Shown one piece after another: positions 5,916 through 51,343 of a DNA stretch of 64,000 nt. Position 1 is the first letter of the stretch. Each line of letters starts with the position of its first letter. The notes under the pieces are model-generated. The model saw nothing but the letters and a program-made list of their open reading frames with translations, made no database searches and was not told where the DNA came from. The position numbers and the translations under genes are program-made. Origin of the DNA: Amphiscolops sp. MND2022 (Eukaryota); NCBI GenBank assembly GCA_964187785.1, contig OZ076409.1:69690001-69754000 (forward strand), written 5' to 3'.

Positions 5916-6512
5916 CTAAATAGGATTGTCGTGAACGTTTAGATCGGGGTAATCTCCGTTCATTTGGTTCACATATTGTTCATTTCTTAAGCTACCTTTT
6001 GCGTTGAGATTTCGCTGAACTTCGGAATTCGGTTCTGGTCTCTCAACCGGAACGTCCCATCCCTTTCTAGTCCTGTGTCCTGATTCGGCCATTATAACAT
6101 TTTGGATTTGAGGAAGTACTTGAGTACTTATTGCATCGTTAATGGCTCTCTGTATTTGGACACTCACGGAATTCATTATCTCATCCATTTCTCGTGAAAT
6201 ACGAGAGTTCAGCTCGCTAGACAATCTGTTTATTTCAGCACTAGAATCACCTGTGATAGAATTACGATCACACTCGGCATACGTCCTAGGTTCAACATTT
6301 CCCCTAGATCCACTTCCGTTTCTGCCCTCATTATCAGACTCATTACTAGCAAAGCTTCTTGATCCTCTAGGTAGATTGCTATTCAGACTACCTTCTCTTT
6401 CTCGTGCACCAAAATGGTTTTCGCCTAACATGATATCCAGATTTTCAATATCTGATAACATCTCAAGTCCTCTAGACTTTCTAGCTTTCTTTTGCTTTCT
6501 AGTAGTTGGCAT
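5916..6512 (-). other. Duplicated N-terminal 195 codons of gag in the 3' LTR, stopping just inside flanking DNA
   Basis: Peptide identical to gag 19256-20971 up to NVHD, diverging at the LTR edge (5927). Confidence 0.9.
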
Positions 6513-7820
6513 TGAAACAATTCCGAATCAATAATGAATTAATCAATACGGAAATAACAGCGTAGCCGTTTGGAAATCAATCTTTTCTAGAACAGTACAG
6601 TATGAATTGTGTCCCGCTCAGGCTAAACACCGGTATTTATACCCCTGAGCGAGTGACACTCACATATTTTACATATTTTCATCTAAGATTGACGTCGTAA
6701 GGTATGTAATGCACTTTGATTTTTACATATTTCTGGTACATAACAAGTATGGTTTCGAAAAAGTTGCATCATAAGCATTTCCGTTTACATATTTTCCACA
6801 TCATCGGGAAACATCAATAACATATTTCTGTGAAATCCTGGTTGGGAGAGTTCCTGACATATTTGTCTCCCAAAATATAACATCAAACAATCAACATAAC
6901 GGTACTTCAAACAACGTATCTATTCTACATATTATTGCAATGTCAACAAATGTTAGCCTCGTTGTCGGAATGCGAGGCTCGTAACACTGGTATGTAGTGT
7001 TAGCACGTGCCACCACGTGGTTATAGGTCAACGTAAGGGGAAGCAAATTCAAATAATACATGTCTAATCTATTTAAATATCACTGCATCATTAAATAAGG
7101 GTATCTCTCAAAAGGGCCGAAATTGGCCAAATCCTGATTAATGGTACAATACTAGGGGGAGAAAGGGTAAAAGACCTTATTCGGCCTTTGATCAGCATTT
7201 AGTTTATTCGGTCCGTTGAGGGGTGCGTTGGTATTATTTTAATATTAAAACACCTTTGAAATGATCCCCAACTAATATGGTTAACTATAAAGTACAGATA
7301 ATACAGCATCACTCATTACATCAAGACGGCCTAAACCGGCCATTTGACCAAGGTACAAAACAATTCATGGACATTAAGTTAATTGGCCGTATTCGGCCGC
7401 TACCAAATCAAAGCTATATTGCACTTGTGAATTGAAGCGCTGTGATTGGTTGAGGGAATGAGCTCAAGTGACGTTTTTGGATTATCGCTGAGCGTCACTT
7501 GAACTCGTTTCCTATACCGCTTTACAGTTGTTTATATTAGTACTGCTTTCGATTCAATCGATTTACATTTTAACTGCACTTTCACAAAGTAGCCTAATTT
7601 GGATATCTCCAAATTGTACAATCTCTAACAGACTAATATTAACTTCATCCAAATATGAAACTGTTACATGAACATACAAAACAACAACTAATCGTTAAAT
7701 AAAACTAGTTTTTAAGGTCCATAACCTGTATTCAGTATATTGGTAGTGTACTCGGTGTCGGGTTTTGTTCTCCTGTCGCTGTAGTATAGTTATTTCCGTC
7801 ACAGGCGGCAGCCTGCGACA
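5927..7820 (-). repeat. 3' LTR of element 1 (1894 bp)
   Basis: Direct repeat of 20386-22281 with a few substitutions and one 2-bp indel; TG...CA termini. Confidence 0.96.
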
Positions 7821-8517
7821 CAGCGGGAGCAATGAAAAGTAGACAACCTGCATTCAGTCCATTTATGTACGCTTCTCGTCTCAATTTGGTGACAAATTCA
7901 GGTTCCCCGCGCGGCGTTGATCTCTCCATGTACCAATTGATCTTCTCGTTTTTAATCTCGTCCACTGATTTCCCACATACCATGCACCCAGTATATCTCT
8001 GACTGCTCAGATTGTCATGGGGTCTGGTATTTTGGATGTGGTAGGACGCATAAAACCCGCTCATTGGTGGTTGGACTAAAGGGGTATCTTGACTGGGCCC
8101 TCTTTCGTGGTCCGGCGGCGACATCGGGGACTCTAGAATCGGTAAGATTGTATTGCACAGTTCGATGCGTGACTTTTCCATCCTCTTAGGAGGGGCATAG
8201 CACCTTTCTAAGTCGAAGTACTTGTGATCCATTTTTGGCGTCTTCTCAGCATTTGCACCGGATGTGCTTGGTCCAGCCACTGACACATCTTCTTCAGGTA
8301 TCTCCGATGTCATTATCCTTCCCCCAATGAGCATAGGGCTAGATGTTACTTCTCTCTCTATCCGCGCTATCAGCTGTTCCGTGTCGGTGGAACAATCCGT
8401 CTCCCAGTCTGACGCTTCGCTCTCACTACTCGATATGTAGATTACAGATTTCTCAGAGCCGTCTGAGTCGAATTCTTCCAAGTCAAATAACTTCCTTGCG
8501 AGATTGTATTTACTCAT
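7732..8517 (-). CDS. ORF-X of element 1: 261-aa accessory protein of unknown function (acidic N-terminus, CxxC), ending inside the 3' LTR
   Basis: Homologous to 36578-37396: GGRIMT/AGRAMT, SPMSPPDHERG/TPLSPPPHEQG, CMVCGKS/CIVCGKS, LRREAY/LRRRNAF, VSQAAACDGN. Confidence 0.8.
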   Translation of the reverse strand: MSKYNLARKLFDLEEFDSDGSEKSVIYISSSESEASDWETDCSTDTEQLIARIEREVTSSPMLIGGRIMTSEIPEEDVSVAGPSTSGANAEKTPKMDHKYFDLERCYAPPKRMEKSRIELCNTILPILESPMSPPDHERGPSQDTPLVQPPMSGFYASYHIQNTRPHDNLSSQRYTGCMVCGKSVDEIKNEKINWYMERSTPRGEPEFVTKLRREAYINGLNAGCLLFIAPAVSQAAACDGNNYTTATGEQNPTPSTLPIY

Positions 8518-8884
8518 GATGGCTTTCTTCGCTATTTTGAAGCTTGTAGATGCAACTGTATCGTGATGAAGTTTTAGGGTAGAATGAATTTGTCAAATCC
8601 AAAAATTTAGCCGAGTAAGGTGTTTTCCCGAAGTTTCCAATTTGGCGGTTAGACCTTCGGTTAATCGTCCTGATCTGTCATAAACTTTTCAGAATAGAAT
8701 TCCTTGATTTGTCGGCTCCCTTTGATAACATGATGTTTACCCCTCATCAGTGTCATCACTAGAAGAGGTGTGAATGACTCTCAGCTTATGAATATCAACT
8801 ACACCCTTCTCAAGTGGGTAATTAACGGGTCGCTTGTAAGCAATTAGCGGCACGCGTCACCAAAATTTCTCGTAAAGGCTCCAT

Positions 8885-8967
8885 CCAATCAGCGTTGAGC
8901 TTTGATAAATTGTAAAATTAAATAATAAAATGGCGAAACTAATAAATCCAAATGATTCAAGATGGCG
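8885..8967. promoter_or_regulatory. Candidate internal promoter between the divergent ORF-X and antisense gene
   Basis: CCAATCAG followed by TTGATAAAT and AAAATGGC, also present in element 2 (~37793-37860). Two YY1-like AA(A/G)ATGGCG motifs. Confidence 0.4.
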
Positions 8968-9580
8968 AAAATTCTAACTAAGGGTAACTAGGGTAACTGA
9001 ACAAAACGGCAAGACAAAATAGGGTAAACGTCCATGTTTGGCCAATAACTAGATAAGCTGTAAATACCAAAGTCCTTTGTACACTTCGCTGGCAGACTCC
9101 ATGTACAGAATAAATATGTAGATAATTTCATAATATTAGTCTGGTAATAATCTTCAGCCACGAACTCCAACTTTCAATTTTTTACATTAAAGTTCCAACC
9201 CAATTCCATTTCTGATCATTCCATATCCGCTTCTGCTATTTGTACTTATCCAACTGTCATCCATCCTTGTGTGTCCACAACTACACAACTGCTTCCTCCA
9301 GCTCTTCTCTCCGGAGTGTCCCAGATTTCCTTCTGTCTCCGTCGTAGTCAATTCAGCTCTACAAACCCTTCTTCTCAGCACAAACAACTTCCGTTGGAAC
9401 AACAACACTGAGGGAACATGTCTTCGAACACAGGTTGGTCTGATTTCCGTATATTGAACTAATTTAGCTTGATCAAGGCTAGACTTTGTTCAAGTGGGCT
9501 TCCTATTTCCACTAAGAAACGTGTGATATCACGCTTTGTTCAAATTTAAAGTACTTCCGGAAGATTTCTGACGCGGTGAA

Positions 9581-12500
9581 ATGGATTCTTTTCAAGGAAG
9601 CATACCGCCTAACTTTATCTCTTTTCGTTTAGAGAATCAGACAACTGAAATTGCCAGCACATCAGCCAACCCTTCTACAACTGTCCCGACAGTTAGTCTT
9701 CCAACTGAGATGGGATCGCAAATCCCACATCCTGATACGTCCCAAACCACGCTCAGCATCCAACCTGACGAAAAGGGGAATGAAAGTCGACCCGATGAAG
9801 TCACCTCCATTCATAGTGCAGACAGTGACTTGGACGTGACCATTTATGCCGAGAGTATGGTCCGACAACTAGAGAGTTCTCAGACACCAGACCGAACTCA
9901 ACAAGAAGCCACACAGCTTGATCCAAGTCAGGGTACGGACCCTGGTGTCCAAGAAGATTCGTCTGCCTCTAACACTGGGGAGGCTAGGAGGGCAAGCACC
10001 CCTTTGGTTACCGAAAGGGGGGAGGCTCCAACTGCTGATTTGTCTGCCCTAGAGTCTGCGCTGCGAGTAGTCGAGAGTTCTGGGTCCCAATTGGCAGAAC
10101 TTGTGGATGTTACTCAACCCGATACCAACATTGAGGGTGACTCCCTGGCACATCAGGACTACGATGCCGCATCATCCATTGGCGACGCTCCCCCTCTTCC
10201 TGGAGGAGAATGCAAGATTCGGTATCTGACTGATCCCAGTGGGGACGAAGGAGCTACTGATCAATCTAGCGTGGTGGTTCCTGTGGCCTTGTATGGTTAC
10301 ACTCCCTTCGCGCATGCCTCTGAAACTGAAGGAGGAGATGAGACCGCTTCGGAACTTCCTGTCCCTGGTACTAGTAGACAGGCCCCTGGACAAGCTGAGT
10401 CCCACCGGGAACCACCCCACCTTTCAGGCAGGAGTCGAGCTATCCTCAAAGAATACTTTGACGAGTCCCCTTCTGTACGACTTCCTGTAGGTCATACCAC
10501 TGTGTCGTTTACTGAGCCACAGGTGAACCATCTCCTTAGAGTCCTCACCGACGAGACTCTCAGCCGGTCCTTTTCGACCATGGAACAAATGGTCACAGAT
10601 GCAGTTCGTGGGAGACCCACTGTCACCCCATCACGAACTGCTCATTTCTTTGCAGGGAGGCGGGCTCAAACACCGGGTCCCGGTAGTATTGGAGACTCTA
10701 GCGGGAGTGACTCTGAAGGGGAAGTCACGTCAAAGGAGAGGGTTGCCGGATCATCGAGTTCGGAAGACACCGGAGATTCCTCATATTATGGGGAAAGCGA
10801 TGATGCTACTGAGCTGGACTTGATAGCGAAGTCCTTCAAGAAACCCGCTGAGACACATGGTTCGCTAGTTCCGCAAGCGTCTGGCTTGGATTCTCAGGCT
10901 GATACTCCAGAGTACAGCAGTCAAGATGCCACGCTCCTTGAAGTCAGGGACCAGGTCCGAGAAGGTGCCGCTGCCGGTTCGTCCAAGTCCAAGAGGAAGA
11001 GAGGCAACCGGAATCTCTCCAAACGAGGTGTCCCTATGCGAGAAGAGTTCTTCGCAAAGATCGGATGGACAAGGTCCTTCATTTCAGGCCCTGCTGACCC
11101 ACTCCATAATCCTCATATGGTTTGGTGTCATATCTGCAAGAAGAACTTCTCCATCAAATCTAAGGGCCCTTATGAGATATTGAGACACCATCGAACGGAG
11201 CGCCATCTGCGACGCGATCAACGCTGGCGCTATGAACATTTGCGGAGCACGGATCCAGTGACAGGGAAGGTGCAACACAGAGTCAGAGGTGGCAATGGGA
11301 AGTTGTTGTCCAAAGTTGAGCTGGCTAAGGAGTTGCCCAAATTTATCCACGTTGAGATCGTGGACATAGGAGAACGCTTCCCCTTTTATGAGGATTTCGT
11401 CAAAGGGTCAACCACTGCTTTGGTTACCCCGGAATCTCGCACCAAGACTCAGCTCTGCCTGGTTGGGGATTTCATCAAGAGCCAAGGCGATCTGATGGTT
11501 CTGCGAAATCTGTGGTCCCGGATGGGGTCATTTACCAATCATCAGGCCACCTTCAACGACTTTGATTGGGGGGAAGAGAGATTGTCGGTAAGCATTTGTT
11601 TGTTTCATCCGCTTAGGTTCCATTCCTTCTAAGGTTTCAAAAAGGTTTTGTTTCTAGGCGATCTTCCAACACTTCTTCGTCTGTTGCCTTGAGGACATAG
11701 CAGAGAATGTCAACACTCAGCAGTGCTTTGCTCTTGAGTTCGAGACCAAAGGGGTCTACAAACACATGTCCATCAAGTTCTGGAAGGGCTCCGAGCTTTG
11801 TAGAGTCTTCATATGCCGCAGCTCACAGATCACTACAGACGTGACAGGAGAACTTGGGTCTTTGTCCCGACTCCTCTCTGCCATATCTACCAAGCCTGGA
11901 ATTGTAGCCTGTTCTGGATGTCACTCTGAATTACCCAGGGCCATCGACGGGTCAGAGTACTACAAACAGGGGGTTCAAAGCTGTCTGCGCTTCGAACACT
12001 TCAGCCTGCCCAATCTCATGCACAAGACGAGCTATAGTGTTTTTGGGAAGATAGACTTCTTCTCCGTCCTTCGAGCCTTGATGGTCTCCCTGGGTGGGTC
12101 CCTCATGGAGGATTGGGTTCTCCGCAGCCCAGAACTTACCAAAGTATGTAGTTTCCTTGCATTTCTCTCATCGGAGTCATAGGCTTAGGTAGGGCTCTTT
12201 CATCCTATTCGTCTGGAATCCTCATGCGGCTTTATTTTACTTTCCAGGCTGTGACCAGTTGTAAGCTCGAAGTGACAACCTTGCCTGTTCTTTGTCGAGA
12301 ACTCATCGCCGAGTGGAAGAACGTGGTGCGGTACCTGACCACACATGCGCCATTGCAAGAAGGTCAAGGATCCCGAGGAAGGGTTAGATCTCACCTTTTC
12401 TCCTTTGAGTCACATGGGAATATAGGTCAATTTTCTTCATCTAATCGGTAGGGTCCAGTTTTTACCACGGGGTTGATGATAGTCTTGTTCCAGGTGCAGA

Positions 12501-13807
12501 GCTTTGAGTGGTTGGTGATATGCGACGAATTCTTCGTCGTCAAACTGGAATTCTTCAGTAGGATCGTCAACGATTGTAAGTATAAACTGTCGCAGCCTTA
12601 GTGAGGGTCTACCATCCTGAATTGGACAACAGTTTTGTTTTCAGTCGTCACCAGTTTCTCAGTCAGTCTACAGTATCGACGCGATTCGTCCTTCTACTTG
12701 TGTGGGGAAGTAAGCCGATTTCTCAGCCTGCTCTGTTCCCGTATATACACCCCTGACACTGCGCCCCTAGCAAACGCTTGGTTTCTCCTCTTGCGCTTTC
12801 AGACGAGCGAGGCCACCTTCCTTTCAGGAGACGAATACCTTGTCCGGCTTAAGCTAGCGAGTAAGGTTTCAGCCGCATGCAAAGCAAGAGCCGAAGGTCT
12901 CCATTTCGGCAAGAAATCAGAGCGCGCTGCTATACAAGCTACTGCTGAGACGGTAAAGGCTGATTTCGTCAAGGACAGCCAGCATTACATCCAGTTTGTA
13001 ATCAATGGAATTCCTCAAAGAACTGGGCTCAGCACTAATCTGGTGAAGGGGCTTGCTGCTTTTGACCCCTTTATTATGCTGAAGAGGCCAATGGATGTGG
13101 CCTTACGACATTTCGAGGTGTTGTACAGCAGCTTCGCAGTCCGATCTTGGGTCGATGATTCAAATGAGTCCCAGTGTCGGGATCAATATATCCAGCTGTT
13201 GGATCACCTCCGAACCGCCTACGGACCTGATTTCGATATCACCAGTGCGTCCGCCGATTTGATCGAGTTCTTGATGGGGCTCGAGTTTCTCCATGAACGT
13301 TCCCATCTCCTATACCTCTTCAAATTGAGCTGTTTGTGCACGACCGTCACCAGTCCTAGCTATCCAGATGTCGTCTTTGGGGAAGTTACTACCGCTGGTG
13401 GACAGAGCCGGTTCACTGACCTGATCCTGCCTTGTCAGAGTTATATGGCTAATGTCATTGGTTCTGTCGTCCGGAGCAGCGAGGACTCCAATCTGGCCAA
13501 ATTTTCGACTCTCTCCACATCGTTTGGTCGTTCTGCCTTCTCTCCCGACTATGACCCTTGGGCCTATGTGGATACTTTCGGTCGGTCGGGAATTTACAAA
13601 TCCCTCTTGTCCACTTACCGCAAGGCTGACTCTGCTCTAAAACGGGTTTCAGTCCAGGAAGACTTGGGAGAGAGCAGTACTGTGTGTGATCAATCTGCTG
13701 TGAAGTTTCCCAGTAGTAAGAAGCGAAGGAGAGGTAGGAGCGGCTCACGATCGTCTGCTTCCTCTGTTGCTGGGAGCCCCAGTAAAGATTCCTCCACTAA
13801 GGCCTGA
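9581..13807 (+). CDS. Antisense spliced gene of element 1, ~1290 aa: disordered acidic N-terminus, BED-type zinc finger, hAT-transposase-like body. Exons 9581-11587, 11658-12143, 12248-12382, 12494-12575, 12645-13807; possible upstream mini-exon 9418-9433 spliced to 9633
   Basis: GT-AG introns with pyrimidine tracts join the ORF fragments in frame (3873 nt, no internal stop). Internal exon lengths 486/135/82 nt and phases 0,0,0,1 are identical in element 2. Confidence 0.85.
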
Positions 13808-14054
13808 TTCTGTACATATGTATTTATGTACTTACGAACTGTAAACTTTGTTGATTTTCTGTTTTGTTGCCATATTTGTATTTCCATTCTGTTTTCCTGA
13901 TTTCTTGATCCCGTTGTTTATTTTTCCTGGAAGGGATCGTTGTGAAATGTCCCATTATTTATTCAGAAAAAACTTTGCTTGGGACTGAAAAAAGAAAAAA
14001 TGAGAGTGAGAAGACACTATTCACTGCTCCTTTTCGAGCAGAATTTAATCTTCC

Positions 14055-17000
14055 CTAGTATCTGAAGTCTTCTGAGTAGTTTGGGTTAGGGTTAGGCCTG
14101 AGATTATATTTCCCTCCTCTAGGGCTCAGACTTTCATTTCTAGCATCGCTTTCGGATATTTCGGGCACGATAATATCATCCCCCCTTTTTGGAGAGTTTT
14201 GTGCATCGTTTTCATTCATTGAATTTCTTTCTGAAAAAATTTCATCATTTTCCGGTCCACCTGCCGTACTCGGCAAAGAATTTTCTTGGTTTTTTGGGGA
14301 AACGGCCGGATTCGGCCAATCAGATTTGGTATTTTCTGTCACTGCAGTAGCTTTATTTCTTTCAGTGACGTCATCATCTAAGCGTTTATTCCGGCTGTGT
14401 GCCGCGTTGTCGTTGTTTAATTCTTCTCGCGTGATTATGTAATCCGCTTCGGTCTCGTCTACGTCATTTGCATTCGTTTCCGCCGTGTTCGGCTGTTCGG
14501 CATTCGGCACGCTAGTCGGAATAGTCTCGCTGTCTCGTGTAACTAGCTGCTCTCCAAAATCTGTTTCCCACGCTATGACGTATAGGTCGTCTTGCGGGAT
14601 GACAATTTCTTCGTCTGGCTGCAGACGTTGTTCTCGGAAATTGTCCTCAAGCGGTTGATTGGGAATAAACCTTTTAAGGCGAATGCGATGCAAAATTTGA
14701 GTTTTGTTCGTATTGATCCTTCGTACTATGTAGTTTTCATTTGGCAAAACCTTTTGGACTACAAATGGTCCAACCCAACGGTAATCGCGGAATGGAATTT
14801 TTGATCCTTGATGATCCGCTTTCGGCTGTAAGACGAAACAGTAATCATTCTCTTTCAATGGAGCAGCTTTTGCTTTGCGGTCGTAATATTCTTTGTACTT
14901 GATGTACGACTGCATAATGTTCTGCTTCGTTTTGTCAATTAGGATTTTTGTCCGGTTTTGGATTTCTTCTGCAAATTCGGTTGTAGGGTTGATCTTTTCG
15001 TTTGGATTATTTCCAAGCTTGTGATCCAGAATGTTATAGGGAATTCTGCCATGGAATACTCTCGTTGGCTCACAACCAATACTGGCATGATAACTCGTAT
15101 TATGATTAAGTACTGCTAATGGCAAATATTTATGCCATTGTCGGCGGTATTCCCCACATGCCATTTTGAGGTTTGTCTTTAATGAGGCATGGGTCCGCTC
15201 TAATTTCCCAATTGTTTGCGGGTGCTTTGTCGTTGCACATTTGAGTGTAATGCCCAAAATTTGCGTAACCTCCGCAATAATCGTAGAAGTGAATGCAGTA
15301 CCCTTATCAGTAATAAGAGTCGTTGGCAGATATGCATGCTTGGTCATTATGTCAATGAGCGCTTTTGCCACATTGATCGCTGATGCGTCTGTAAGGGGAT
15401 AAGCGAATAAATATCTGGAGAAAACATCAATTGCCGTTAGGACATTTTCATACCCTCCACTTGGGGGAAGATTCGGCAATAGGTCAATCTGCATGGCGTC
15501 TTCAGGTCCAAGGTCCCATTCGGGCGAGTTGAGCAGCTCAGGTGTGATCGTTGCGTTAGGGACTCTCTTGTCTCTGGCACATTGTTCACACCCTTCTACC
15601 CACTTTTTGACGTGTTTAGCCATGCTAGGGTAGTAATACCTTTGTCTGATTTCCTGCAACATTTTTGAAATCCCGGGATGTTTATGCGCTGTCCCGTGAA
15701 GGGAGTGGAGCAATTCCCGAAGTAGGTGTTGCGGGAGCAAAATTTGATGGTATTTAACATTCCCTGTTTCATCAAAATATTGCCTCGTCAGGATTTCGTC
15801 CTTGAGTACAATTCGTTCCAGATTATTTGCATAGTGTCTATATCGGGCATCCTGTTGCAGTATGTTTTCTGAATAGTCTTCATGAAGGAGCTTTGCCTTC
15901 AATTGTTGCAATACTGCATCTTTGGACTGCTCGATGATTATCTGGTTTGTTTTCTTTAATCGGACTTGGATGCCTGGTTGTTGTTTGACCAGATTGGTTG
16001 ACAGAGTTTCTATGGTAACAGTGGGTTCATCAGTCATTGGATTTTTCCTGATTGCTTCTTTTCTTGCCCAATACTGTTCCTCTGTCTCGTCATCATCATT
16101 CGTATAGAATATTTGTTCTTCCTGTGATACCCCCGCAGATTGAACATTTATCTCAATGGGTAAAGTTTGCACGTCTTCACGGATTTTCATGACTAATTTA
16201 TCCTTCGGATCTGCCTCCAATCGGGACAAATAGTCAGCTGCTGTGTTCTGTGCTCCCGGGATATGTGCTATGACAAAATTGAATTGAATCACATAATGGC
16301 ATGCATTCCACAGGGCTGGGGGTATTATTTTCGTTTGGAAAAATCTCGTAACGGCTTTGTTGTCGGTAAGGATAATGACCGGTTTGGGCGCACCCCAGAA
16401 TATATGTCCAAATTCTTTGAATGCAAAGTAAATTGCCAGAAATTCCTATGCATATATTGACATTTTGATCTGGGCTGGGGTGAAGGTTTTTGATCCATAG
16501 GCCACCGGTGCGTAGGATTTTCGGAGAGATGTGAATTTCTGGTTTGGATCGTCTTCTATTAAGACCGCATATCCAGCTGCACCAAAACTTGCATCAGTCA
16601 TTAGTGCGATTTGTTTGTTCGGGATAGGTTGTTGTAGGGCTAAATCGCAACATTTGTCGAGTGCCTTGTTGATTTCTTCGAATTGTTGGACTAATTCTTT
16701 CGATACTAGGACCTTTTCGTCACTTTTGAGCATCTTGTAGAATGGAGCAAGGCGTTCGGATAGTCTTGGGACATAATTCCTGTAGTAGTTCAAGAATCCC
16801 AAGTAGCGCTGCAAAGCCTTTTTCGACTTTGGGACTTTGGTCTTTTCCAGAAAGTTTTGCACGTTCTGTTTCTGGGGTTTGACGCCTTGCGGGGTAATAG
16901 TCCGTCCGAGAAAATCAATTTCTTTTGCACCGAAGTGACATTTGTGCATTGTCAACTTAAGGCCTGCTTCCTGAATGCATTTGAATGTTGCTCTCAGGTT

Positions 17001-31283: not shown

Positions 31284-31297
31284 AGAAGGTGTTATTG

Positions 31298-32906: not shown

Positions 32907-32927
32907 TACATATTCTTGCTGCCTAAA

Positions 32928-41800: not shown

Positions 41801-43218
41801 TGTCATTCACGATGACTTCTTTCCTTGCAGACTTGAGTTCTTTGGGAAGCTTGTCCGCGATTGTTAGTACTCTAATTCTCCTTGCACATTGGTTTCCACA
41901 TGGCTTCATAATAATTCAATAGGATGCATCTGACTGGAACTGGGCTGCGCCTTGTCGAATTTCCAATCTAAGCTTGACTGTCCCAAAATAAATCCTCTTA
42001 GTCCTAGTTACGACAATGGGACCATAGGTCTTTTAAGGCATAATCTGGTTTCATGGTTGATTCACTGTTTCAGACACCACCAACTTCTCACTCAGTCTCA
42101 GTGGCCGGCGAGACAGGGCCTTCTACTCCTTCCGACAGCTTTGTCTCTACCTTCGCAAATTGGCTAAGCGCGTTGTTCTCCCCACTGCTTTGCCTGCTGA
42201 AGAAGACATCGCGAGTATCTTGGACCTGGATACCACAACTGCTCTGGCCCTCAGCGTCCCCGTGTTTCTCAGCAGAACCAAATTTGGAGCGAAACTTGAC
42301 CATGCCTGCAAGTTGAAAGCAGAGATTGAGCAGCATGAACAGAAAGGAGAGAAGACGTCAATCGACACATTGAAAGAGAAGGCTAAGGAAGAATTTGGAC
42401 GTTTGGCCAGGAGTTACGTGACTCATCTGTTCAAAGAGACGCGTAGTCACTTCAATTTCACCACCAACATCGCCCAAGGTTTGGCCAGCTTTGACCTGGA
42501 AATCCTCTTGAAGTTGCCTCTCACTCTGGCCACGAAATGCTTCGGTCAGTTATTTACCGTCTTCCGTCTTCGTGGGTATTTTTCCCAAGAACAAGAGGCC
42601 CCAGCACATGAAGAGTACCTGTCCTTCGTCGACCAGTTGCGCATTAAATTTGCAGAGTTCGATCAACCTACACTATTGATCAAGGATACAATTGATTTCC
42701 TCATGGGCCAAACAACTCTGTCTACACGTCCATTGTTGTTTAGTTGTTTCAAGTTGGCTTGTCTCTGCATAGATGAGCCTTTTAGAGATCTCCCGACAGT
42801 CAAGTTCGGCTCTGTCAACACGGATGATCCTACCAGCAAGCTAGTGGACATAGTGCTGCCAGTGCAATCGTTCTTTAGCCAAGCTGTTAATCCAGTTGAG
42901 TCAGTGACCAGCGATGCCTCGATCTCCGAATTCCTCGAAATGGAGTCTACTTTCGGTCGCACTGCGCTTGGCGACACGTATGACCCGTGGTCGGGTTTGG
43001 ACAATTTCGGGAGGACTGAGATTTTGTCGAAGTTGGATCCTGAACGCAGACTTCAGAGCAAAGCTGGCAAGGTGGGCGCTTCCAGTACTGTCACAGTCCA
43101 GCAGTCCCCCAGTACCCTACAGTACCCTAAGAAGAATGTCCGTCCTACTCATCTCTTGTCAGATTCCGAATTGGTCCAGACTGCTAAGAGTCTGCGTCAG
43201 TGTGGCAGTAAAGACTAA
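38868..43218 (+). pseudogene. Antisense spliced BED-finger/hAT-like gene of element 2 (~1280 codons) with one nonsense codon. Exons 38868-40862, 41015-41500, 41573-41707, 41781-41862, 42074-43218
   Basis: Same intron positions and phases as element 1. TGA at 40458-40460 stands where element 1 has Arg (EILRH); the frame continues HFATERHLRKDQRWRYE. Confidence 0.85.
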
Positions 43219-43440
43219 TTGTACACAATGTGCACATATATAAACTTTAGACTGTAAACTATTTATCCATATTTTCTTTTGTTCTGCCAATGTTGCTTGT
43301 GGCTTTATTATTCGTCGCTAAGTCAGTTTGTCGGCACCTTATTAATTGTCATAAAGTGAAGTCAAAATAGTCCCAAGTAAAGAATACATGTCCTCAAGGG
43401 CAGAGAGAGAAAATTGGGACGTAGTAATTAAATGTTCTGA

Positions 43441-46400
43441 CTAGTATCTGTATTCTTCTGAGTAATTAGGGGTAGGGTTCGGACGGAGGTTATATCTCCC
43501 TCCTCTAGGGCTTTCATTTTCTACAATCATTTCGTCGTTTTCGCTTTCTGATACTTCGGGCACGATAGTATCGCTCCCCCCTGATGAAGTTTCCTCACCA
43601 GGAATTGAGTCATTATCGGAATCGGGCATGATTCGCTCAGGAAGAGTTTCTTCCGTCTCGTCATGTCTAGTGGACTGTAGGTCCACATCGGTCAAGATCT
43701 GATCTGGCTGGTCGAAGTTAGTATCTTCGCCGCTCGTAATTTCTGGTCGTTCAGTTGATTGCTCGTAGGTCGGTTGACGTCGAGTGGACGCGAAGTCCTC
43801 AAAGTTCGTTTCCCACGTGATTACGTAGAGATCATCTTGGGGAATGACAATTTCATCGTCTGGCTGTAAATTCCCTTCTGGGCGAACGTCCTGTAAGTCT
43901 GTATTAGGCTCATATTTTCTGAGACGTATTCTGTGTAAAATTTGCGTTTTGTTGGAATTGAGTTTGCGAACTATATAATTATCGTTTGGTAAAACTTTTT
44001 CGATAATGTAAGGGCCAATCCAACGGAATTCGCGAAATGGGATTTTTGATCCTTGATGGTCAGCTATAGGTTGTAGAATGAAGCAATAATCATTGAGTTT
44101 CAAAGGTGCTGCTTTGGCCTTTCGGTCATAGTATTCTTTGTACTTCAAATAAGACTGCATAATATTTTTCTTTGTGGAATCAATCAAAACCTGTGATCTA
44201 CGTTGGAATTCCTCAGCAAAGTCCGTGGTGGGAAGGACCTGTGGGTTTGGGTTGAGCCCCAATTTATGGTCTAAAATATTGTACGGTATGCGGCCATGAA
44301 ATATCCTTGATGGTTCGCAGCCCAACGTCGAGTGGTAGGACGTGTTGTAATTTAGGACTGCTAACGGTAAGTACTTGTGCCACTGACGTCTATACTCCCC
44401 TGAGGCCATTTTGAGGTTAGTCTTAAGACTGGCATGAGTTCTTTCTAGCTTTCCTATGGTCTGTGGGTGTTTCGTCGTCGCACATTTAATTTGAATGCCC
44501 AAAATTTGCGCAATTTCAGCTACTAACTTTGATGTGAAGGCTGATCCTTTATCGGTAATCAAAGTCGTCGGCAAATACGTATGTTTGGTCATGATGTCGA
44601 TAATGACCTTAGCGGTATTTGCAGCTGAAGCATCAGTAACTGGGTAAGCGAACAGGTAACGTGAAAAAACGTCCATGGCAGTAATAATATTTTCGTAGCC
44701 TCCGCTCGGCGGGAGGTTCGGTAATAGGTCTATTTGCATAGCGTCTTCTGGACCCAAAGTCCACTCTGGCAAATTGAGGAGCTCAGGAGTTATTAACTCA
44801 TTTGGAGTTCTTTTATCTTTTATGCAGGTTTCACATCCATTAACCCACTTGCGGACGATTTTCGCTATTCCAGGATAATAATATTTGGAACGAATTTCTT
44901 GTAACATTTTTGCAATGCCCGGATGGCGATTGGCCTTCCCGTGAAGGGATTCTAATAATTCAGTTACTAGGTGTTTTGGTAAGAGCACTTGGTTGTATTT
45001 GACAGTGCCAGTTTCGTCGTAATACTGCCTCGTGATGATTTCGTTTTGAATGGACAGTCGGTCTAGTTGGCGTAGGTAGTGCTGATATCTTGTATCTTGT
45101 ATCAAGATTGTTTCAGAATACTCTTCTTTTTGAATTTTGAGCTTAAGTTGTTGTAGTATAACGTCATTGTTTTGCTCTATAGTCACAGTGTTGGTATTGG
45201 CTAGTTTTTGACAAATGGGTAATTTTTGATAATTGCTGTGATGAGTGGTAAATTTTTGAAAAGAAATATCCGGTAATTGATTGGAAGGATTGTCTCGTGA
45301 TTTTTTCTTCCTTTGCCAGATTTGCTCTTCTGTCTCATCTTCATCGTCAGTATAGAAGATTTGTTCTTCTTCTGTGATCCCTGCTGATTGGACGTGAAGT
45401 TCAATTGGCGTAGTGGGAATATCTTCTCTGATGCGAAGAATCAATTTCTCTTTTGGTGATATTTCTAGGCGTGATAAGTAGTCTGCGGCTGTGTTGTTTT
45501 TACCGGGAATGTGTGCTATTGTGAAGTTAAATTGAATAACGTAATCACATGCGTTCCACAACGTTGGTGGTATTATCTTTGTTTGAAAAAAACGCGTGAC
45601 GGATTTGTTATCGGTCAGTATAATTACCGGCTTTGGCGTCCCCCAAAAGATGTGTCCAAATTCCTTGAAAGCAAAGAATATGGCTAAGAATTCTTTTGCA
45701 TAAATGGACATTTTCAATTGTGCGGGACTAAAGGTCTTTGACCCGTAAGCTACCGGAGCAAACGCTTTCCTCGTTGACGTATATTTTTCTTGTGGATCAT
45801 CCTCAATTAGGACTGCGTACCCAGCGGCCATAAAGCTGGCGTCGGTCATTAGGGCTATTTGCTTGTTCGGTAGCGGCTGTTTAAGTGCTAATTCACAACA
45901 GCGGTCAAGTGCTTTGTTGATATCGGTAAATTTCTCCAATAGGTCCGGTGTTACTATGACTTTTTCATCATTCTTTAATAATTTGAAGAATGGTGTTAGT
46001 CTCTCTGATAGCCTGGGAATATAGTTACGATAGTAGTTGAGAAATCCCAGGTATCTCTGCAGTGCTTTCTTTGATTTCGGGAATTTCGTGTTTTCTAGGA
46101 AATTTTGGACTCGTGGTCGCTGTGGACGTACTCCGACTGGCGTGATCGTTCGACCCAAAAAGTCGATTTCTGTCGCTCCGAAATGACATTTGTGCATTGT
46201 GAGCTTCAATCCCGCTTCGCGGATGCATTGGAAAGTGGCCCGCAGGTTCTTTATGAGTTGTTCGGCGTCATTTGCAGCAATGCCGATATCATCGACATAT
46301 TGAGCACATTGGTCAGCCTTAATAACTTTGTCAAGATATTCGCGCATAAAGCTAGAAAAGGCTGACAAAGCACGGCTGAGTCCTTGCGCCAACCTGCGGT

Positions 46401-48486
46401 AAGCAAATGTCCTGCTGGCAAAATTGAACGCTAACATTTCAATGGACCGTTGGTCCGCCATCTGCAAGCAGTGGTATGCTTGCGAACAATCTAGTTTGCA
46501 AAATAGTTTTTTGCCTGCCATATGTTGGGCTGCATCGGTCAGTGTACTGACGGGGTGATTATTGTTAATGTAATCATCCGAAATGAGATTGTTAATCTTG
46601 CGAAGGTCGACCAGCAATCTCAATTTGCCATTGGGTTTCTTTTGGGCAAAGATCGGGCTAGCATATTTGGAAAATGGGAGAGTTGTTATGATCCCATATC
46701 GTTGTAATAGCGCCAGTTCTACGAGGATATCTTCCTTGAGGTTAATAGGCGTTGGTAGACTTTGACTATAGGCCGGGGAATCGTCTTTTGGGGTTAATTT
46801 GACCTTGAATTCCTCGTTCATGCCTATGTCGAATCGATGTCTAGCGAATATATCATGGAATTCGACTAGCAAATTTTCAATGCGTGTAATCTCATCTGAT
46901 TGCAGCATAGAATCTGTCCAATCGAAGTTGGCCAGGAATCGTCGTCTGGACTCAGGGTCATCCTGAGGATTGAGCTTCTCTAGCTCTTGTAGATTCAGGA
47001 GTTCGGTGAGAATGCGCTTTTGTATCGGCGTATGTTGTTGTGGATCCCCGGGGTCTTCCGGAGTGGGAAACCAATAGTTTTCCCGAAAATCTTCTGGCTT
47101 AGAAGATTTAATCAAGCTGCTAACGTAAAATGCAGCATTTTCAGGATTGTCCTGCAAAAGGTGCCATGTGGTCACCGGATCTATAGGTTTGACATACTTC
47201 ATCTGTCCTGGGGTCATGACAGAGAAGTTGGCGACGTGAGAACCTCTCTTGAGAGTATAAGGGTGGTCGGTAAAGTTATTCAGGTGAAATTCAACTTGAC
47301 CGGAGGTCAATGTGACCAGTGCCGCGCAAAAGGCGATGTCTCCATCTTCAGTGAGGGCATTGCTCGGTTGTAATATGCCAGTAACGGTGGTATCATCGTA
47401 CATCTGGGAACTTAACGTGACTAGGTGTCTATCATTTGGTGGTATTGTGATGTCCTCCTGTGTACAGATAGGCTCCATGACGTTTGTGTACTTATGATCC
47501 GCTGTTTTCAATTGCATGGAGAAAAATGGGAAATTTAGAACTCCCTGTCTCATGTCCAGTATGGTGTTGTTTCGTTGCAAGAATGAAAGGCCAATCAACG
47601 GACTTGTTAGTTTCTCCATTACAATGAAAATTTCGTGAAATTCTATATCGCCGACCTCAAATTTAAGTTCGACGGTGCTCTTCGGAGTTTCCAGCTGCCC
47701 ATTAGCTACCATTATCTGGAAGTTGGGTGCTGGGCCCTCTTTGACAATAGACTGAGGGGCTAATAATCGGATTTTACGTAGATCAGCTTCGGGGATTGCA
47801 CTAGATAGGGCACCCGTGTCTACAAGGCCGTCTAATGTAAGTTCGCCAAAATCCATGGGAAAATAGAGCATACGTCTTTTGTATTTGAGTCCAAGATTGG
47901 TTGTGAGCGGAACATAATCTGGCTCGCCATTTCTGGTAACCAGTGTGTTTACAAATCTTGCCTCGACGGCTGACGTCAGAGAGACTTGTGGTCCAAAAGA
48001 ATTGAATTTGGTGTCTGGTTCTTCCTGTGTTGGTAGGACACAGGAATTGGTGTTTGCTTGCCAGGGGTCTACTAGAGCTATGGTCAAGGTATGGTTTAGA
48101 GCCCTGTCTGTCATGGGACAGTCGGGTTCAATTTCAGTTTGAGGTTTGTTAAAGTTTGCGTAAAATTGCAGCTCGTGTTGATTGTAGATTTGAGCGTCCC
48201 AGTAGGGGTCAATGCCGTAGTCGGGGTCAATGTAATAAGGGTTATAGTCAGGTATTAGAGGAAGGGATCGAATATAGTCCGTAGTCGAGGTAAGTCTGTC
48301 GGACCTGTGGTCCGAAGTGCAAAATTGAGTAGGAGTATTTCTCATTTGCTGCTGCCAGTCAGCCGATGAGGTTTTCTTTAGTGAAGAATAATATTCAATA
48401 TAAAATACGGTAGAAGGGTCAGAGATTATATACTGTCTAATTCGTAACTTTCCATTAAATTGGAGTCGTGGCAAATCTAGTTTTTT
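43441..48486 (-). CDS. pol: Pol of element 2 (~1680 aa): N-terminal extension, PR, dUTPase-like, RT, RNase H, integrase with GPY/F
   Basis: Single open frame with LVDTGA, YVDD, TDASF..E..TDNK, H-H-C-C, IDLL..TDKG..KLER and WIGPY. The listed start is TTG, not AUG, consistent with entry by frameshift. Confidence 0.95.
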   Translation of the reverse strand, partial: KKLDLPRLQFNGKLRIRQYIISDPSTVFYIEYYSSLKKTSSADWQQQMRNTPTQFCTSDHRSDRLTSTTDYIRSLPLIPDYNPYYIDPDYGIDPYWDAQIYNQHELQFYANFNKPQTEIEPDCPMTDRALNHTLTIALVDPWQANTNSCVLPTQEEPDTKFNSFGPQVSLTSAVEARFVNTLVTRNGEPDYVPLTTNLGLKYKRRMLYFPMDFGELTLDGLVDTGALSSAIPEADLRKIRLLAPQSIVKEGPAPNFQIMVANGQLETPKSTVELKFEVGDIEFHEIFIVMEKLTSPLIGLSFLQRNNTILDMRQGVLNFPFFSMQLKTADHKYTNVMEPICTQEDITIPPNDRHLVTLSSQMYDDTTVTGILQPSNALTEDGDIAFCAALVTLTSGQVEFHLNNFTDHPYTLKRGSHVANFSVMTPGQMKYVKPIDPVTTWHLLQDNPENAAFYVSSLIKSSKPEDFRENYWFPTPEDPGDPQQHTPIQKRILTELLNLQELEKLNPQDDPESRRRFLANFDWTDSMLQSDEITRIENLLVEFHDIFARHRFDIGMNEEFKVKLTPKDDSPAYSQSLPTPINLKEDILVELALLQRYGIITTLPFSKYASPIFAQKKPNGKLRLLVDLRKINNLISDDYINNNHPVSTLTDAAQHMAGKKLFCKLDCSQAYHCLQMADQRSIEMLAFNFASRTFAYRRLAQGLSRALSAFSSFMREYLDKVIKADQCAQYVDDIGIAANDAEQLIKNLRATFQCIREAGLKLTMHKCHFGATEIDFLGRTITPVGVRPQRPRVQNFLENTKFPKSKKALQRYLGFLNYYRNYIPRLSERLTPFFKLLKNDEKVIVTPDLLEKFTDINKALDRCCELALKQPLPNKQIALMTDASFMAAGYAVLIEDDPQEKYTSTRKAFAPVAYGSKTFSPAQLKMSIYAKEFLAIFFAFKEFGHIFWGTPKPVIILTDNKSVTRFFQTKIIPPTLWNACDYVIQFNFTIAHIPGKNNTAADYLSRLEISPKEKLILRIREDIPTTPIELHVQSAGITEEEQIFYTDDEDETEEQIWQRKKKSRDNPSNQLPDISFQKFTTHHSNYQKLPICQKLANTNTVTIEQNNDVILQQLKLKIQKEEYSETILIQDTRYQHYLRQLDRLSIQNEIITRQYYDETGTVKYNQVLLPKHLVTELLESLHGKANRHPGIAKMLQEIRSKYYYPGIAKIVRKWVNGCETCIKDKRTPNELITPELLNLPEWTLGPEDAMQIDLLPNLPPSGGYENIITAMDVFSRYLFAYPVTDASAANTAKVIIDIMTKHTYLPTTLITDKGSAFTSKLVAEIAQILGIQIKCATTKHPQTIGKLERTHASLKTNLKMASGEYRRQWHKYLPLAVLNYNTSYHSTLGCEPSRIFHGRIPYNILDHKLGLNPNPQVLPTTDFAEEFQRRSQVLIDSTKKNIMQSYLKYKEYYDRKAKAAPLKLNDYCFILQPIADHQGSKIPFREFRWIGPYIIEKVLPNDNYIVRKLNSNKTQILHRIRLRKYEPNTDLQDVRPEGNLQPDDEIVIPQDDLYVITWETNFEDFASTRRQPTYEQSTERPEITSGEDTNFDQPDQILTDVDLQSTRHDETEETLPERIMPDSDNDSIPGEETSSGGSDTIVPEVSESENDEMIVENESPRGGRYNLRPNPTPNYSEEYRY

Positions 48487-50195
48487 GAGTTTTTTAATAT
48501 TGAGGTGGATTGTTTATCCTTGGTCTCGTTTTGTCCAGGGGACGCTTCGTCTTGTTTGGCGTCCTCCAGTTTGAGGTTCTTGGGCTTGAGGTGGGCTCCG
48601 GCGCCTTTCCAACACCGTTCCGCCGGGTGATTTGTTTTGCCGCAAGTCGGGCATTTAGGATATTCTTTTTTAGTATCCTGTCCGTCGTTGCGCCTTTGTT
48701 CCTCCTTTCGTTTGAGTTTCCTGCAGTCGTCTTTGACGTGGCCAGGTTTTTTGCAATAATTGCAAGTGATATTGGGATCAATGCCCGATGAAAGGAGGCC
48801 AGTGCCCGGTCGTGTTGCTGTAGGGGCAGTGGACATTGTAGGTACTGGAATGTCGTCACCTCCCTCAAGTCCATTAAGCTCAAGTTCACGTTCTAAATGA
48901 GTGACAATTTCCTCGTACGATGCATTTTCAAGTCTTGCCATATTGACGGATCTTTTGAGTTTTGGAGGCAATTTGGCGTACAATAGGCTGTCTATCATAG
49001 CTTGAGCGTTCTCACCGAACGCTTTTTCTGCACCCTGATTCAATTCTTCAAGGAAATCGGGCAGTTTCATAGTGTTTGGGTCAAACACGAGTTTGTGCCA
49101 TTTGTGTTTGGCAGTTGCTTGGGATTCTGGTTTGACGTATTTGCGTCTGAAGACTGCAAGTACATCCTCCAAGGTCTGCCTATTAGCGGTGCTGATGTTG
49201 CGGAAAGTTTGTAGGGCATTCTTCCTCAACAAAGAGTGGAAATGGTTGATTTTCATGGTCTCGGTCATTTCCGGTTGCATCTTTACCATAGTATGGAAAA
49301 GATCTTCGAAGAGTTCAAATTTCTCCGATTTGCCATCGAACGTCAATGTAGTAGTGCTGACAGGTCTTACCATCAGTGTCTGCGTTGATGATTTGTTGTT
49401 CATTCCGACCAGCACATCTGCAAGACGCCTAATGGGGTCTGAACCATCGTTGACGTCTGTCTCCTGAACCGGAGGGACATTTTCTAAGGTTTGAATTCGT
49501 GGGGAATGGGAATTTTGTGTTTCTTCGCGGGAATGCATGGGCCGTCCAGTAAGGAATTCAGGAACCGTACGAGGGGTAGGTTTGGCTCCTGTCACCATGT
49601 CGTGACTATTGGTCATAATGTCTTCTTCATGACCATCGTCACTAGACTGAGAGTTCTCTGAATTTCTCCTAAAGTAGTCTTGTCGACTACTGGTTGCCAT
49701 ATTAAGCTTTGAGTTACCTTTCCAAGCGTTTTTAACGAATTTCGCTTCGGTGGTCCTGTTAAGTCCACTGGACCTCTGGCCCACTTCTTCCCGAAACACT
49801 GGATTTTGGTTGGAAACCAAGTTTCTAATATCAGGCAAAACCTTTTCAGTGATTGCTGAATTAATGACATCAACCAGCTGAGAATTAAGTTCTCTTCTCA
49901 GTTCATCAATTTTCTTTGTAATCTCAGAATTAACGAGCCTCATAGTCTCAACCGTCGATTCACTATTTTCTTTACTGTTTGAGTCTAAAAGTGACCTGAA
50001 ATCCTCACTATTTTGCAGTGGGTCTCCTCTAGTCCTATCTGACCCTAGGTCTATTTCACCATTCCTATCAGAGTCATTTCCTAATTCATTTCTTGGATAT
50101 GATCCAAGCATTACGTCTAAGTTTTCTGTATCAGACATGATGTCTAATTGCCTAGAGCGTCTTTCCTTAGCTCTTTGCTTTCTAGTAGAAGGCAT
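48477..50195 (-). CDS. gag: Gag of element 2 (572 aa, two CCHC knuckles); starts inside the 5' LTR
   Basis: CNYCKKPGHVKDDC and CPTCGKTNHPAERC; capsid region nearly identical to element 1. Confidence 0.93.
   Translation of the reverse strand: MPSTRKQRAKERRSRQLDIMSDTENLDVMLGSYPRNELGNDSDRNGEIDLGSDRTRGDPLQNSEDFRSLLDSNSKENSESTVETMRLVNSEITKKIDELRRELNSQLVDVINSAITEKVLPDIRNLVSNQNPVFREEVGQRSSGLNRTTEAKFVKNAWKGNSKLNMATSSRQDYFRRNSENSQSSDDGHEEDIMTNSHDMVTGAKPTPRTVPEFLTGRPMHSREETQNSHSPRIQTLENVPPVQETDVNDGSDPIRRLADVLVGMNNKSSTQTLMVRPVSTTTLTFDGKSEKFELFEDLFHTMVKMQPEMTETMKINHFHSLLRKNALQTFRNISTANRQTLEDVLAVFRRKYVKPESQATAKHKWHKLVFDPNTMKLPDFLEELNQGAEKAFGENAQAMIDSLLYAKLPPKLKRSVNMARLENASYEEIVTHLERELELNGLEGGDDIPVPTMSTAPTATRPGTGLLSSGIDPNITCNYCKKPGHVKDDCRKLKRKEEQRRNDGQDTKKEYPKCPTCGKTNHPAERCWKGAGAHLKPKNLKLEDAKQDEASPGQNETKDKQSTSILKNSKN
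48480..48486 (-). promoter_or_regulatory. -1 ribosomal frameshift slippery site A-AAA-AAC, element 2
   Basis: TCA AAA AAC TAG at the gag end; the -1 frame gives KLDLPRLQFNG, which is the pol frame. Confidence 0.8.
49586..49597 (-). promoter_or_regulatory. Primer binding site TGGTGACAGGAG, element 2
   Basis: Abuts the 5' LTR end; identical to element 1. Confidence 0.85.
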
Positions 50196-51343
50196 TGAAG
50201 AAATATTTGCTCAGGTAAGAGTATATTCGAGCTTGTATCAAATATCCCAACTTGAACTGAGTATTCAAACAATAACAGAACGATATATCACTAAAGCAGT
50301 CTACTAAAGCGAAGGTTGACTTGTAGTCTCAAAATGATTAGAACACTGATGGTGATAGATAGCGGTGAGTTGTAGGTTTGTAATCATCAATAATCGTCAA
50401 GATTCATCCCTTGGGACTAGTGGTCCCCGTATTTATAGTCCTTGCATCATGACATGCAGTAATATGTATAGTCATGTTACTAAAATTAGCAACTTATATA
50501 CTAACGTCACTATGACGTAATGCTGTCAAACTAAATATAGACACAAGTACGGGCAAAAGGCCCTGGGAAGTTTACGTCACATGTTCCTGTAATTCTAAAA
50601 TTAGCATCTCTACGTGTATTAGATCTAAAAATAGATAAAGAGGAAGGAAAATGGGGGGGAAGAGGCAGTACGCCTTTCATATTAATGACAGCAAGACTTG
50701 TGCTGAGCTCATACTTATATGCACCAATAGTATTGCACCTAGTTAAGATTAATAATCATCAAAGTAAATACACCGACAATAAGTGGACCGGCAGTCTAAT
50801 ATGACTTGCGTCGCCGCAAAGGCCAGCAAGTAAGTGAATAAGAAAGCTCGCATGTGATTGGCTAATTAAGGTTGCGGACTACGCGTTCGAATTGACCAAC
50901 GCGGCGGACAATTCGAACGCGTTTCCTTTACCTTGCCAGTTATCTTGATTATTACAGCTACATTTCATCGATAATTAATACATTCTGCACTACTGGTTTA
51001 CATGTAGAATACACAAGCATAAAGACGTGAATATATATATAAAGTGTACATGCGCAGTGTATAAAATCAACAAACAGAATACAATGAATGCTATATCTAT
51101 GTAATGAATACTAAAATGCAATTGGTACTACAAGTCATACTAAGACCAGTGGACCTTCGGTCCGTAATAGCATAAATTCACATTCTAATTGTTTGTGAAA
51201 AAAATAGAAGTCTTGCACTAAGTTTCCCAGCAGATCAGCGGTATACGCGGCCTAAAGTGGCAGTGTTCCTGGCATATATCTCAGGTCGTTCTCATTCACC
51301 ATCACTTGGTAGCTGTTTCCATCACAGGCGGCAGCCTGCGACA
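49598..51343 (-). repeat. 5' LTR of element 2 (1746 bp)
   Basis: Direct repeat of 34924-36669. Confidence 0.96.
50430..50437 (-). promoter_or_regulatory. TATA box TATAAATA of the element 2 LTR (also 35756-35763)
   Basis: About 235 nt upstream of the gag ATG; same motif as in element 1. Confidence 0.55.

Follow-up and report, generated by a model that had tools for sequence, protein, structure and literature searches.

The 64,000-nucleotide window analysed here (positions 69,690,001 to 69,754,000 of the forward strand of contig OZ076409.1, Amphiscolops sp. MND2022) contains two full-length long terminal repeat (LTR) retrotransposons, elements A and B, each of which carries, between pol and its 3' LTR, an antisense gene and a small sense gene, ORF-X. 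The main novelty lies in the antisense gene, which is very probably derived from a hAT transposase. A and B are Ty3/Gypsy elements by the order of their pol domains, by their TG...CA LTRs, by a tRNA primer-binding site (PBS) and by their target-site duplications (TSDs), with the polypurine tract (PPT) as the expected feature that is absent. Both are read on the minus strand in the order LTR with gag start, PBS, gag, pol, convergent antisense gene, spacer, ORF-X, LTR, and this order, the gag start within the LTR and the two element lengths are as the original prediction had them. It had also taken A and B for two separate insertions that share one layout, which is borne out by their different TSDs (AGGAT and GCTAT) and by the divergence of their non-coding DNA: nucleotide sequences can be aligned solely over parts of gag and pol (69–78 % identity), and all coding parts align as protein. 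Two details required revision, in that the antisense gene, described as five-exon, has a short 5' exon in addition to five large coding exons, i.e. six, and ORF-X, rightly placed next to the 3' LTR, does not lie outside it, as about 30 of its codons run into the repeat. The features of the two elements, in window positions, are as follows.

5927..22281, minus strand: element A, full length, 16,355 bp, with TSD AGGAT at 5922–5926 and 22282–22286
20386..22281, minus strand: A 5' LTR, TGT...ACA, 1896 nt, with the first 195 gag codons inside
20374..20385, minus strand: A PBS, TGGTGACAGGAG, complement of the 3' end of host tRNA-Leu(CAG)
19256..20971, minus strand: A gag, with a DUF1759-like capsid region and a CCHC knuckle, and with an A-AAA-AAC slippery site and stop at its end
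14055..19268, minus strand: A pol, −1 frame, with protease (PR), reverse transcriptase (RT), RNase H (RH) and integrase (IN)
9418..9433, plus strand: A antisense exon 1, with ATG and a phase-1 donor
9633..11587, plus strand: A antisense exon 2, with an acidic low-complexity region, a basic patch and a BED-type zinc finger, CxxC...H...H
11658..12143, plus strand: A antisense exon 3, encoding RNase H-like strands that belong to the hAT fold, with no conserved acidic pair
12248..12382, plus strand: A antisense exon 4
12494..12575, plus strand: A antisense exon 5
12645..13807, plus strand: A antisense exon 6, encoding the helical insertion domain and the C-terminal portion of the hAT fold
8518..9417, no strand: A divergent spacer, with a CCAAT-like box and the GCTGGCAGAC motif
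7732..8517, minus strand: A ORF-X, 261 aa, with an acidic N-terminus, a near-invariant H and an invariant CxxC...CD, its last 30 or so codons lying in the unique 3' region (U3) of the LTR
7799..7818, minus strand: A hairpin, LTR nt 3–22, at the start of U3
5927..7820, minus strand: A 3' LTR, 1894 nt
34924..51343, minus strand: element B, full length, 16,420 bp, with TSD GCTAT at 34919–34923 and 51344–51348
49598..51343, minus strand: B 5' LTR, 1746 nt, with the first 199 gag codons inside
49586..49597, minus strand: B PBS, TGGTGACAGGAG
48477..50195, minus strand: B gag, with A-AAA-AAC and stop at its end
43441..48513, minus strand: B pol, −1 frame, with PR, a weak dUTPase-like stretch, RT, RH and IN
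38920..43218, plus strand: B antisense gene, exons 38920–40862 (first ATG at 38928), 41015–41500, 41573–41707, 41781–41862 and 42074–43218, with a short 5' exon that ends at 38721
36578..37396, minus strand: B ORF-X, which enters U3
36648..36667, minus strand: B hairpin, at the start of U3
34924..36669, minus strand: B 3' LTR, 1746 nt

The predicted model of the A antisense gene has six exons, separated by GT–AG introns, and an open reading frame of 1,279 codons, its counterpart in B is damaged by a premature stop (40458–40460), and the antisense frames of A and B share 28–52 % protein identity. The gene converges on pol, with about 250 nt separating the two stops. Among related elements of the same genome, which fall into four deep clades (see below), intron positions are common to several clades; in one family exons 2–6 form a single frame (62 matches, 70–100 % identity), clade 3 is without the intron after exon 3, and one element (L031) is without the intron after exon 2. 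The splice model is supported by the shared intron positions and by the families that are intron-less at those same junctions. On this pattern the antisense gene would be transcribed and spliced, and the intron losses would mean that its spliced RNA was copied back. The family with the intron-free main frame comprises L017 and L051–L065, and a second intron-free group, of about 49 % identity, is found in ENA (P0284–P0296). Three clade-4 elements (L018, L019 and L042) measure 19.2 kb; in these an extra 2.5 kb or so separates pol from the antisense gene, and additional antisense exons lie upstream.

The affinity of the antisense protein emerged from structure prediction. Folding of a natural, largely intron-free frame of 716 aa, with a 96-row alignment as input, gave a model with a predicted local distance difference test score (pLDDT) of 85.8 and a predicted template modelling score of 0.75. 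The hAT transposase Hermes ranked first in structural comparison (Z 15.0, root mean square deviation 5.2, 401 residues aligned; next protein Z 7.0) and was the only chain with Z of 8 or more among 48,161 PDB chains (Z 13.2). Ranks 1–10 of a Foldseek search of the PDB were all Hermes (E 1e-3 to 7e-2), the top match in a viral library was also a hAT-domain protein (E 4e-4), and the Atlas grouped exon 6 with hAT/FAM200 clusters (0.92–0.94). Both the RNase H-like core and the helical insertion domain that mark membership of the hAT family are present in the model. The ligands of the BED finger are invariant in the alignment (C31 and C34 in 28 of 28 rows each, H57 in 30 of 30), which conserves CxxC...H...H, and the Pfam zf-BED match is weak (E 0.11–0.17). 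The catalytic residues of hAT transposases lie, as we take from Hermes, at the ends of strands 1 and 4 and in the last helix. At the corresponding inferred sites of the DDE triad, placed by secondary structure, we found E in 12 of 31 rows and no majority of D at the end of strand 1, G in 21 of 26 rows and D in four at the end of strand 4, and no acidic majority in the last helix; neither a conserved acidic residue nor CxxH is present at positions so placed, and the host hATs used as a control have clear D, D, CxxH and ER motifs. Judged from the model, the protein would thus have lost catalysis. We are highly confident that it is under selection, derived from a hAT transposase and probably dead. 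Other searches were negative: no accessory frame scored above the Pfam cut-off, PDB sequence searches with two accessory alignments (A1 and A4) gave no matches, PF04195 (TRP28) matched neither the exon frames nor the 726-aa frame, and the single-sequence fold of exon 6 was uninformative (pLDDT 36.7). No inverted repeats flank the antisense gene among the 25 longest pairs listed (minimum 40 nt), a search in which short terminal inverted repeats (TIRs) were not specifically sought.

The genome (1.07 Gb) contains genes for Wnt ligands, which mark the host as an animal. In it the RT motif common to A and B has 5,869 matches, against none for the control, and the 22-nt LTR start has 3,601. The first 40 RT matches by position, all on contig C1, were taken as a sample, each with 10 kb downstream. 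The antisense gene was found in 36 of these copies, across four deep clades, its frames forming one BLAST-connected cluster, and a profile search detected pieces of it in 37, with a fragment in one more. Two copies without it (L012 and L020) look truncated because their integrase match is partial or absent, and every copy with a full-length integrase match has the gene. When sampling was reversed and loci were picked by the antisense gene, 28 of 29 had an adjoining integrase in convergent orientation. The predicted co-occurrence of the accessory module with this pol clade therefore holds from both sides. The further claim that both accessory genes belong to the lineage stands for the antisense gene and needs amending for ORF-X, which is not universal: no equivalent was found in any of the four clade-4 elements inspected. 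An RT tree of 36 rows, namely A, B, one outgroup and 33 of the 40 sampled loci (any locus with three or more stops being excluded), has four main groups and a separate L017 branch, and a tree of the BED exon (27 rows, built by a quick search only) arrives at these main groups as well. Twelve further elements were inspected at both ends: 11 have a 5-bp TSD, the same PBS, LTRs 99.2–100 % identical and lengths of 14.8–19.2 kb, and the other has an interrupted 5' LTR. In 13 of 13 scorable elements 103–199 gag codons lie within the LTR. A profile of exon 6 retrieved 1,392 representative proteins, the 10 looked up being unnamed ENA entries; the best match to one of these relatives (P0013) among 100 candidates scored in the Amphiscolops genome is 40 %, which suggests that the lineage is present in another host. 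No relatives were found when longer proteins were searched with exon 6 by word index, JGI metagenomes with the BED exon, and viral contigs with ORF-X. Three integrase-related contigs of 1–3.8 kb were obtained.

Selection was estimated from pairwise Nei–Gojobori ratios of non-synonymous to synonymous substitution (dN/dS), calculated on stop-to-stop frames that were aligned locally and may include a little intron sequence. For the antisense gene the ratio is 0.04–0.19 in most estimable pairs. It is 0.08, 0.11 and 0.08 in the intron-poor family at dS of about 0.5, and 0.05 at dS of 2; in one spliced pair (L026/L029) it is 0.07, 0.06 and 0.12 for three exons, with 0.08 for ORF-X and 0.07 for pol, and in another (L033/L043) 0.08, 0.06, 0.12 and 0.09. 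Higher ratios were obtained in a 99 % identical pair (0.44) and in several very distant pairs (0.24–0.53, unreliable at dS of about 1.8 or more); many pairs were saturated, and the comparison of A with B was unusable, its dS being saturated or above 2. With purifying selection of this strength and a presence in 36 of 40 copies, the accessory module is real, selected and lineage-defining, and most unlikely to be passive cargo, as had been predicted. Its alleles have a history of their own. In several pairs pol has dS of 0.03–0.2 and the accessory genes 1.2 to saturated, and DNA identity, about 96 % up to the end of pol, falls there to about 75 % or less and rises again in the spacer or the LTR. 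Since pol is nearly identical in these pairs and the accessory genes are divergent, old accessory alleles have been exchanged onto shared pol backbones.

ORF-X, of about 260–270 aa and in sense orientation, is homologous between clades 1 and 2 (invariant CxxC, G, R and CD); in clade 3 what remains of it is an acidic frame whose tail crosses into U3. It is short, acidic and Cys-containing, with no env match in Pfam or the PDB, and its alignment (A6) gave zinc-finger matches among PDB sequences at E > 0.7 only. The spacer between ORF-X and the antisense gene is probably a two-way promoter; the GCTGGCAGAC motif and the CCAAT-like box, each present in 10 of 17 spacers, are candidate targets or promoter parts. 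The 3' ends of the elements are unusual. Only four of the 15 nt before the A LTR are purines and no canonical PPT is present, and among 27 distinct U3 junctions from 34 copies (related sequences that overlap ORF-X codons in three clades) there is one canonical PPT (14 of 15 purines, in a clade-4 copy with the antisense gene), the rest having 4–11 purines in 15; short G-runs in some junctions may serve instead. U3 begins with a hairpin which, counted from LTR nt 3, has a mean of 5.5 of 6 pairs, compared with 4.3 ± 0.13 (maximum 4.7) in 500 shuffles and 3.4–4.8 at starts outside nt 1–5. Pairs 5–8 switch type between clades, i.e. they covary, and the prediction of the hairpin extends to clade 4, in which no ORF-X was found. 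That it takes part in plus-strand priming is a guess.

We propose that a hAT DNA transposon would have inserted, in reversed orientation and as a single ancient event, into the stretch that separates pol from the 3' LTR in an ancestral Ty3/Gypsy element, and that its mobility and catalysis would then have been lost while its transposase gene was retained by the Gypsy lineage. The element itself would move by reverse transcription and its own integrase; its 5-bp TSDs indicate insertion by the integrase and not by a hAT enzyme. The introns of the antisense gene would survive the copying of genomic RNA because the gene faces the opposite way. A two-way promoter in the spacer would drive the antisense gene and ORF-X, and the protein, with its BED zinc finger and whole hAT scaffold kept and its DDE triad lost, would act as a nuclear DNA-binding trans-regulator that keeps the element expressed, by activation or anti-silencing. 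Spm TnpA and VANC are regulators of this kind, which keep DNA transposons expressed. Dead transposases acting as sequence-specific regulators have also been described (bioRxiv 10.64898/2026.08.24.746577), in a text whose accessible part does not mention LTR elements. The chances of such a putative regulatory or anti-silencing function seem to us evenly balanced, and the explanation as a whole, a nested hAT domesticated as a DNA-binding regulator of a Gypsy element, may equally prove right or wrong. Several observations weigh against it. No link to hAT was obtained by sequence (Pfam, hmmsearch, and hhalign with a probability of 0.7 %) beyond the weak BED match, and for the 726-aa frame no Atlas match exceeded 0.8, so that the hAT call stands on one predicted model and one Atlas result; the catalytic positions were placed by secondary structure and not residue by residue on Hermes; and the repeated motifs of the spacers exceed all 100 shuffles in just three of 17 cases, being mostly within the shuffle range. 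Furthermore, pairs with 93–96 % identical LTRs or 85–95 % identical spacers have very different antisense alleles. That alleles are exchanged while LTRs and spacers stay nearly identical speaks against a strict pairing of one family and one target with one protein and leaves room for a host-facing or an integration role.

An integration role would make the protein a cofactor that, bound to chromatin or to the ends of the cDNA, tethers the integrase complex or imports it and steers insertion. The position of the gene beside the integrase in 28 of 29 copies and the DNA-binding finger and basic patches of the protein are in its favour, as is the nuclear import proposed for antisense ORFs in the accessible part of PMC7264820, but families with antisense alleles of 45–80 % identity have almost the same integrase, which is unlike a tight protein pair, and 13 TSDs have no strong consensus by eye. 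We consider it unlikely. A host-facing antagonist, which would block a host silencing factor or hAT-derived proteins and whose old alleles would be kept by frequency-dependent selection, is suggested by accessory alleles far older than the accompanying pol and exchanged as blocks, and the host has many canonical hATs; however, positive selection was not seen in the pairwise ratios, nor any sequence similarity to the sampled host hATs, and this role is doubtful too. It is quite improbable that an altered nuclease or strand-transfer activity was retained for replication, e.g. to make the plus-strand primer that the missing PPT would normally provide. Although the full hAT fold is conserved in the model, most copies combine a conserved U3 hairpin with the lack of a canonical PPT, and in the proteins of clade 1 an E often closes strand 1 and a D often occurs in the last helix, none of the three positions has an acidic residue that is kept from clade to clade, the one clade-4 copy with a canonical PPT nevertheless carries the gene, and the 5-bp TSDs are integrase-like and not hAT-like, those of hAT transposons being 8 bp. 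That the antisense RNA and not the protein is functional, as a source of self-limiting double-stranded RNA, would suit a gene that converges on pol with so little sequence between the stops, and such a role is discussed for plant elements in the accessible part of PMC7264820; protein-level purifying selection at saturated synonymous sites and a conserved fold make it highly improbable, and as a sole function it is largely refuted because dN/dS is well below 1. That the gene is a nested hAT transposon with a mobility of its own, or passive cargo, for which the hAT fold itself could be cited, is extremely improbable, given the same place and orientation in four clades, the agreement of the RT and BED-exon trees on the main groups, the rarity of the gene away from the integrase, the lack of a conserved triad and the strong selection.

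The LTRs are 99.6 % identical in A and 99.9 % in B (one mismatch) in a self-comparison of the window; gag reads through the PBS and a −1 frameshift signal precedes pol. Pfam identified gag features and the pol order PR–RT–RH–IN on the minus strand in both elements, pol of A being damaged by in-frame stops (18720–18722 and 16446–16448). The dUTPase-like match is weak (E 0.08 in A; E 0.004 in B, at pol residues 349–432, between PR and RT), and none of six further PR–RT frames has one. The RT has only distant relatives among RTs of solved structure (lowest E 1e-27 for foamy virus, then 1e-23 for Ty3), and its close relatives among the matches listed are unnamed ENA proteins. At the start of pol (18720–19268 and about 47950–48513) some 180 residues run from the frameshift to the protease with a conserved PDYGxDPYWD and no Pfam match, and a GCCAC(G)-like motif that recurs directly past the gag stop in most elements inspected may be a frameshift stimulator or part of the pol coding sequence. 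The PBS matches 12 nt at the 3' end of a tRNA-Leu(CAG) gene of the host (one of four scanned loci called as tRNA); the window itself contains no Rfam match or tRNA gene. The tRNA-Leu 3'-end pattern has 808 matches genome-wide, and a long tandem array of units of about 300 bp, from G000:C8:35,587,798 onward, holds most of those listed and may supply the primer tRNA of the lineage. Elsewhere in the window, two frames at 394–1791 (minus strand), with a related copy near 61600–63400, encode a FLYWCH-like zinc finger followed by a CYFH-containing core and, by eye, are presumably Mutator-type transposases. Dispersed repeats with internal short repeats (4223–4751, 26981–27505, 31308–32027, 32952–33720, 23400–23778, 26114–26468 and 53900–54800) are probably non-autonomous DNA elements.

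Antisense ORFs between pol and the 3' LTR are known from the plant Retand/Tat elements (Grande gene23, RIRE2 and Retand TRP28), and, in the accessible parts of PMC11963269 and PMC7264820, TRP28 is said to resemble no other transposable element and a nested-element origin is called unsupported, since none of these genes is similar to a different element. The gene described here differs in its full hAT fold, in its length (about 1,280 aa in A), in its shared introns, in its sense partner ORF-X and in its animal host. The statement in the original prediction that such ORFs are known mainly from plants holds for these cases and overlooks the fungal Boty-like elements of Botrytis and Sclerotinia, which have an antisense gene, brtn, in the same place (Zhao et al., 2011, cited in PMC7264820 and PMC8365987); they are likewise non-plant Gypsy elements with an antisense gene, but their host is fungal and the accessible parts of these two papers state no transposase origin. 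Because antisense genes are known from both groups, the layout alone is less new. Among animal elements, the bdelloid ORF3s (PMC5408684) and planarian Burro (PMC6431247) also add non-env accessory genes to a Gypsy-like plan and share a dUTPase-like stretch between PR and RT, which in A and B is weak. The ORFs described for them, as far as these texts are accessible, are env-like, GDSL, DEDDy or polyprotein-domain ORFs. The word 'transposase' does not occur in the accessible part of PMC5408684. With Ty3/Gypsy elements (Metaviridae) in general the lineage shares the PR–RT–RH–IN order, TG...CA LTRs, tRNA PBS and 5-bp TSD, and it departs from them in its remote RT, in the 103–199 gag codons within the LTR and in the usual lack of a canonical PPT. 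With Hermes and other hAT transposases (PDB 4D1Q and 8EDG) the antisense protein shares the BED finger, RNase H-like core and helical insertion (Z 13–15), but identity is 9–12 % and no TIRs or 8-bp TSD were seen. It resembles domesticated dead transposases and transposon regulators such as Spm TnpA and VANC in that DDE is lost and the scaffold kept; here, however, the domesticator would be a retrotransposon, not the host or the DNA transposon itself. We found no report in the literature of an LTR element with a hAT-derived gene and, in agreement with the suggestion that the lineage may be undescribed, no description of the layout, Repbase, GyDB and subscription journals lying outside the coverage. 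That A and B represent an undescribed animal Gypsy lineage, with thousands of copies in this genome and relatives in one or more others, with a class II transposase as trans-regulator or anti-silencer, an ancient pool of exchangeable alleles, a zinc-binding ORF-X and plus-strand priming by a U3 hairpin is a tentative picture, slightly less probable than not.

If true, this would be a first clear example of a transposon class that has domesticated an enzyme belonging to a different class, and the domestication of transposases would reach beyond host genomes to a second mobile element. Where the antisense accessory genes of LTR retrotransposons come from and what they do is an open question, for which this lineage supplies a traceable case, and hAT biochemistry gives direct predictions for the protein: DNA binding by the BED finger, dimerization and no cleavage. 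The long gag segment within the LTR, the combination of a missing PPT and a U3 hairpin that covaries, and the recurrent loss of introns from an antisense gene are each testable departures from the standard model of replication. The retained transposase is also a candidate reason for the success in Amphiscolops of a lineage with at least 5,869 RT copies.

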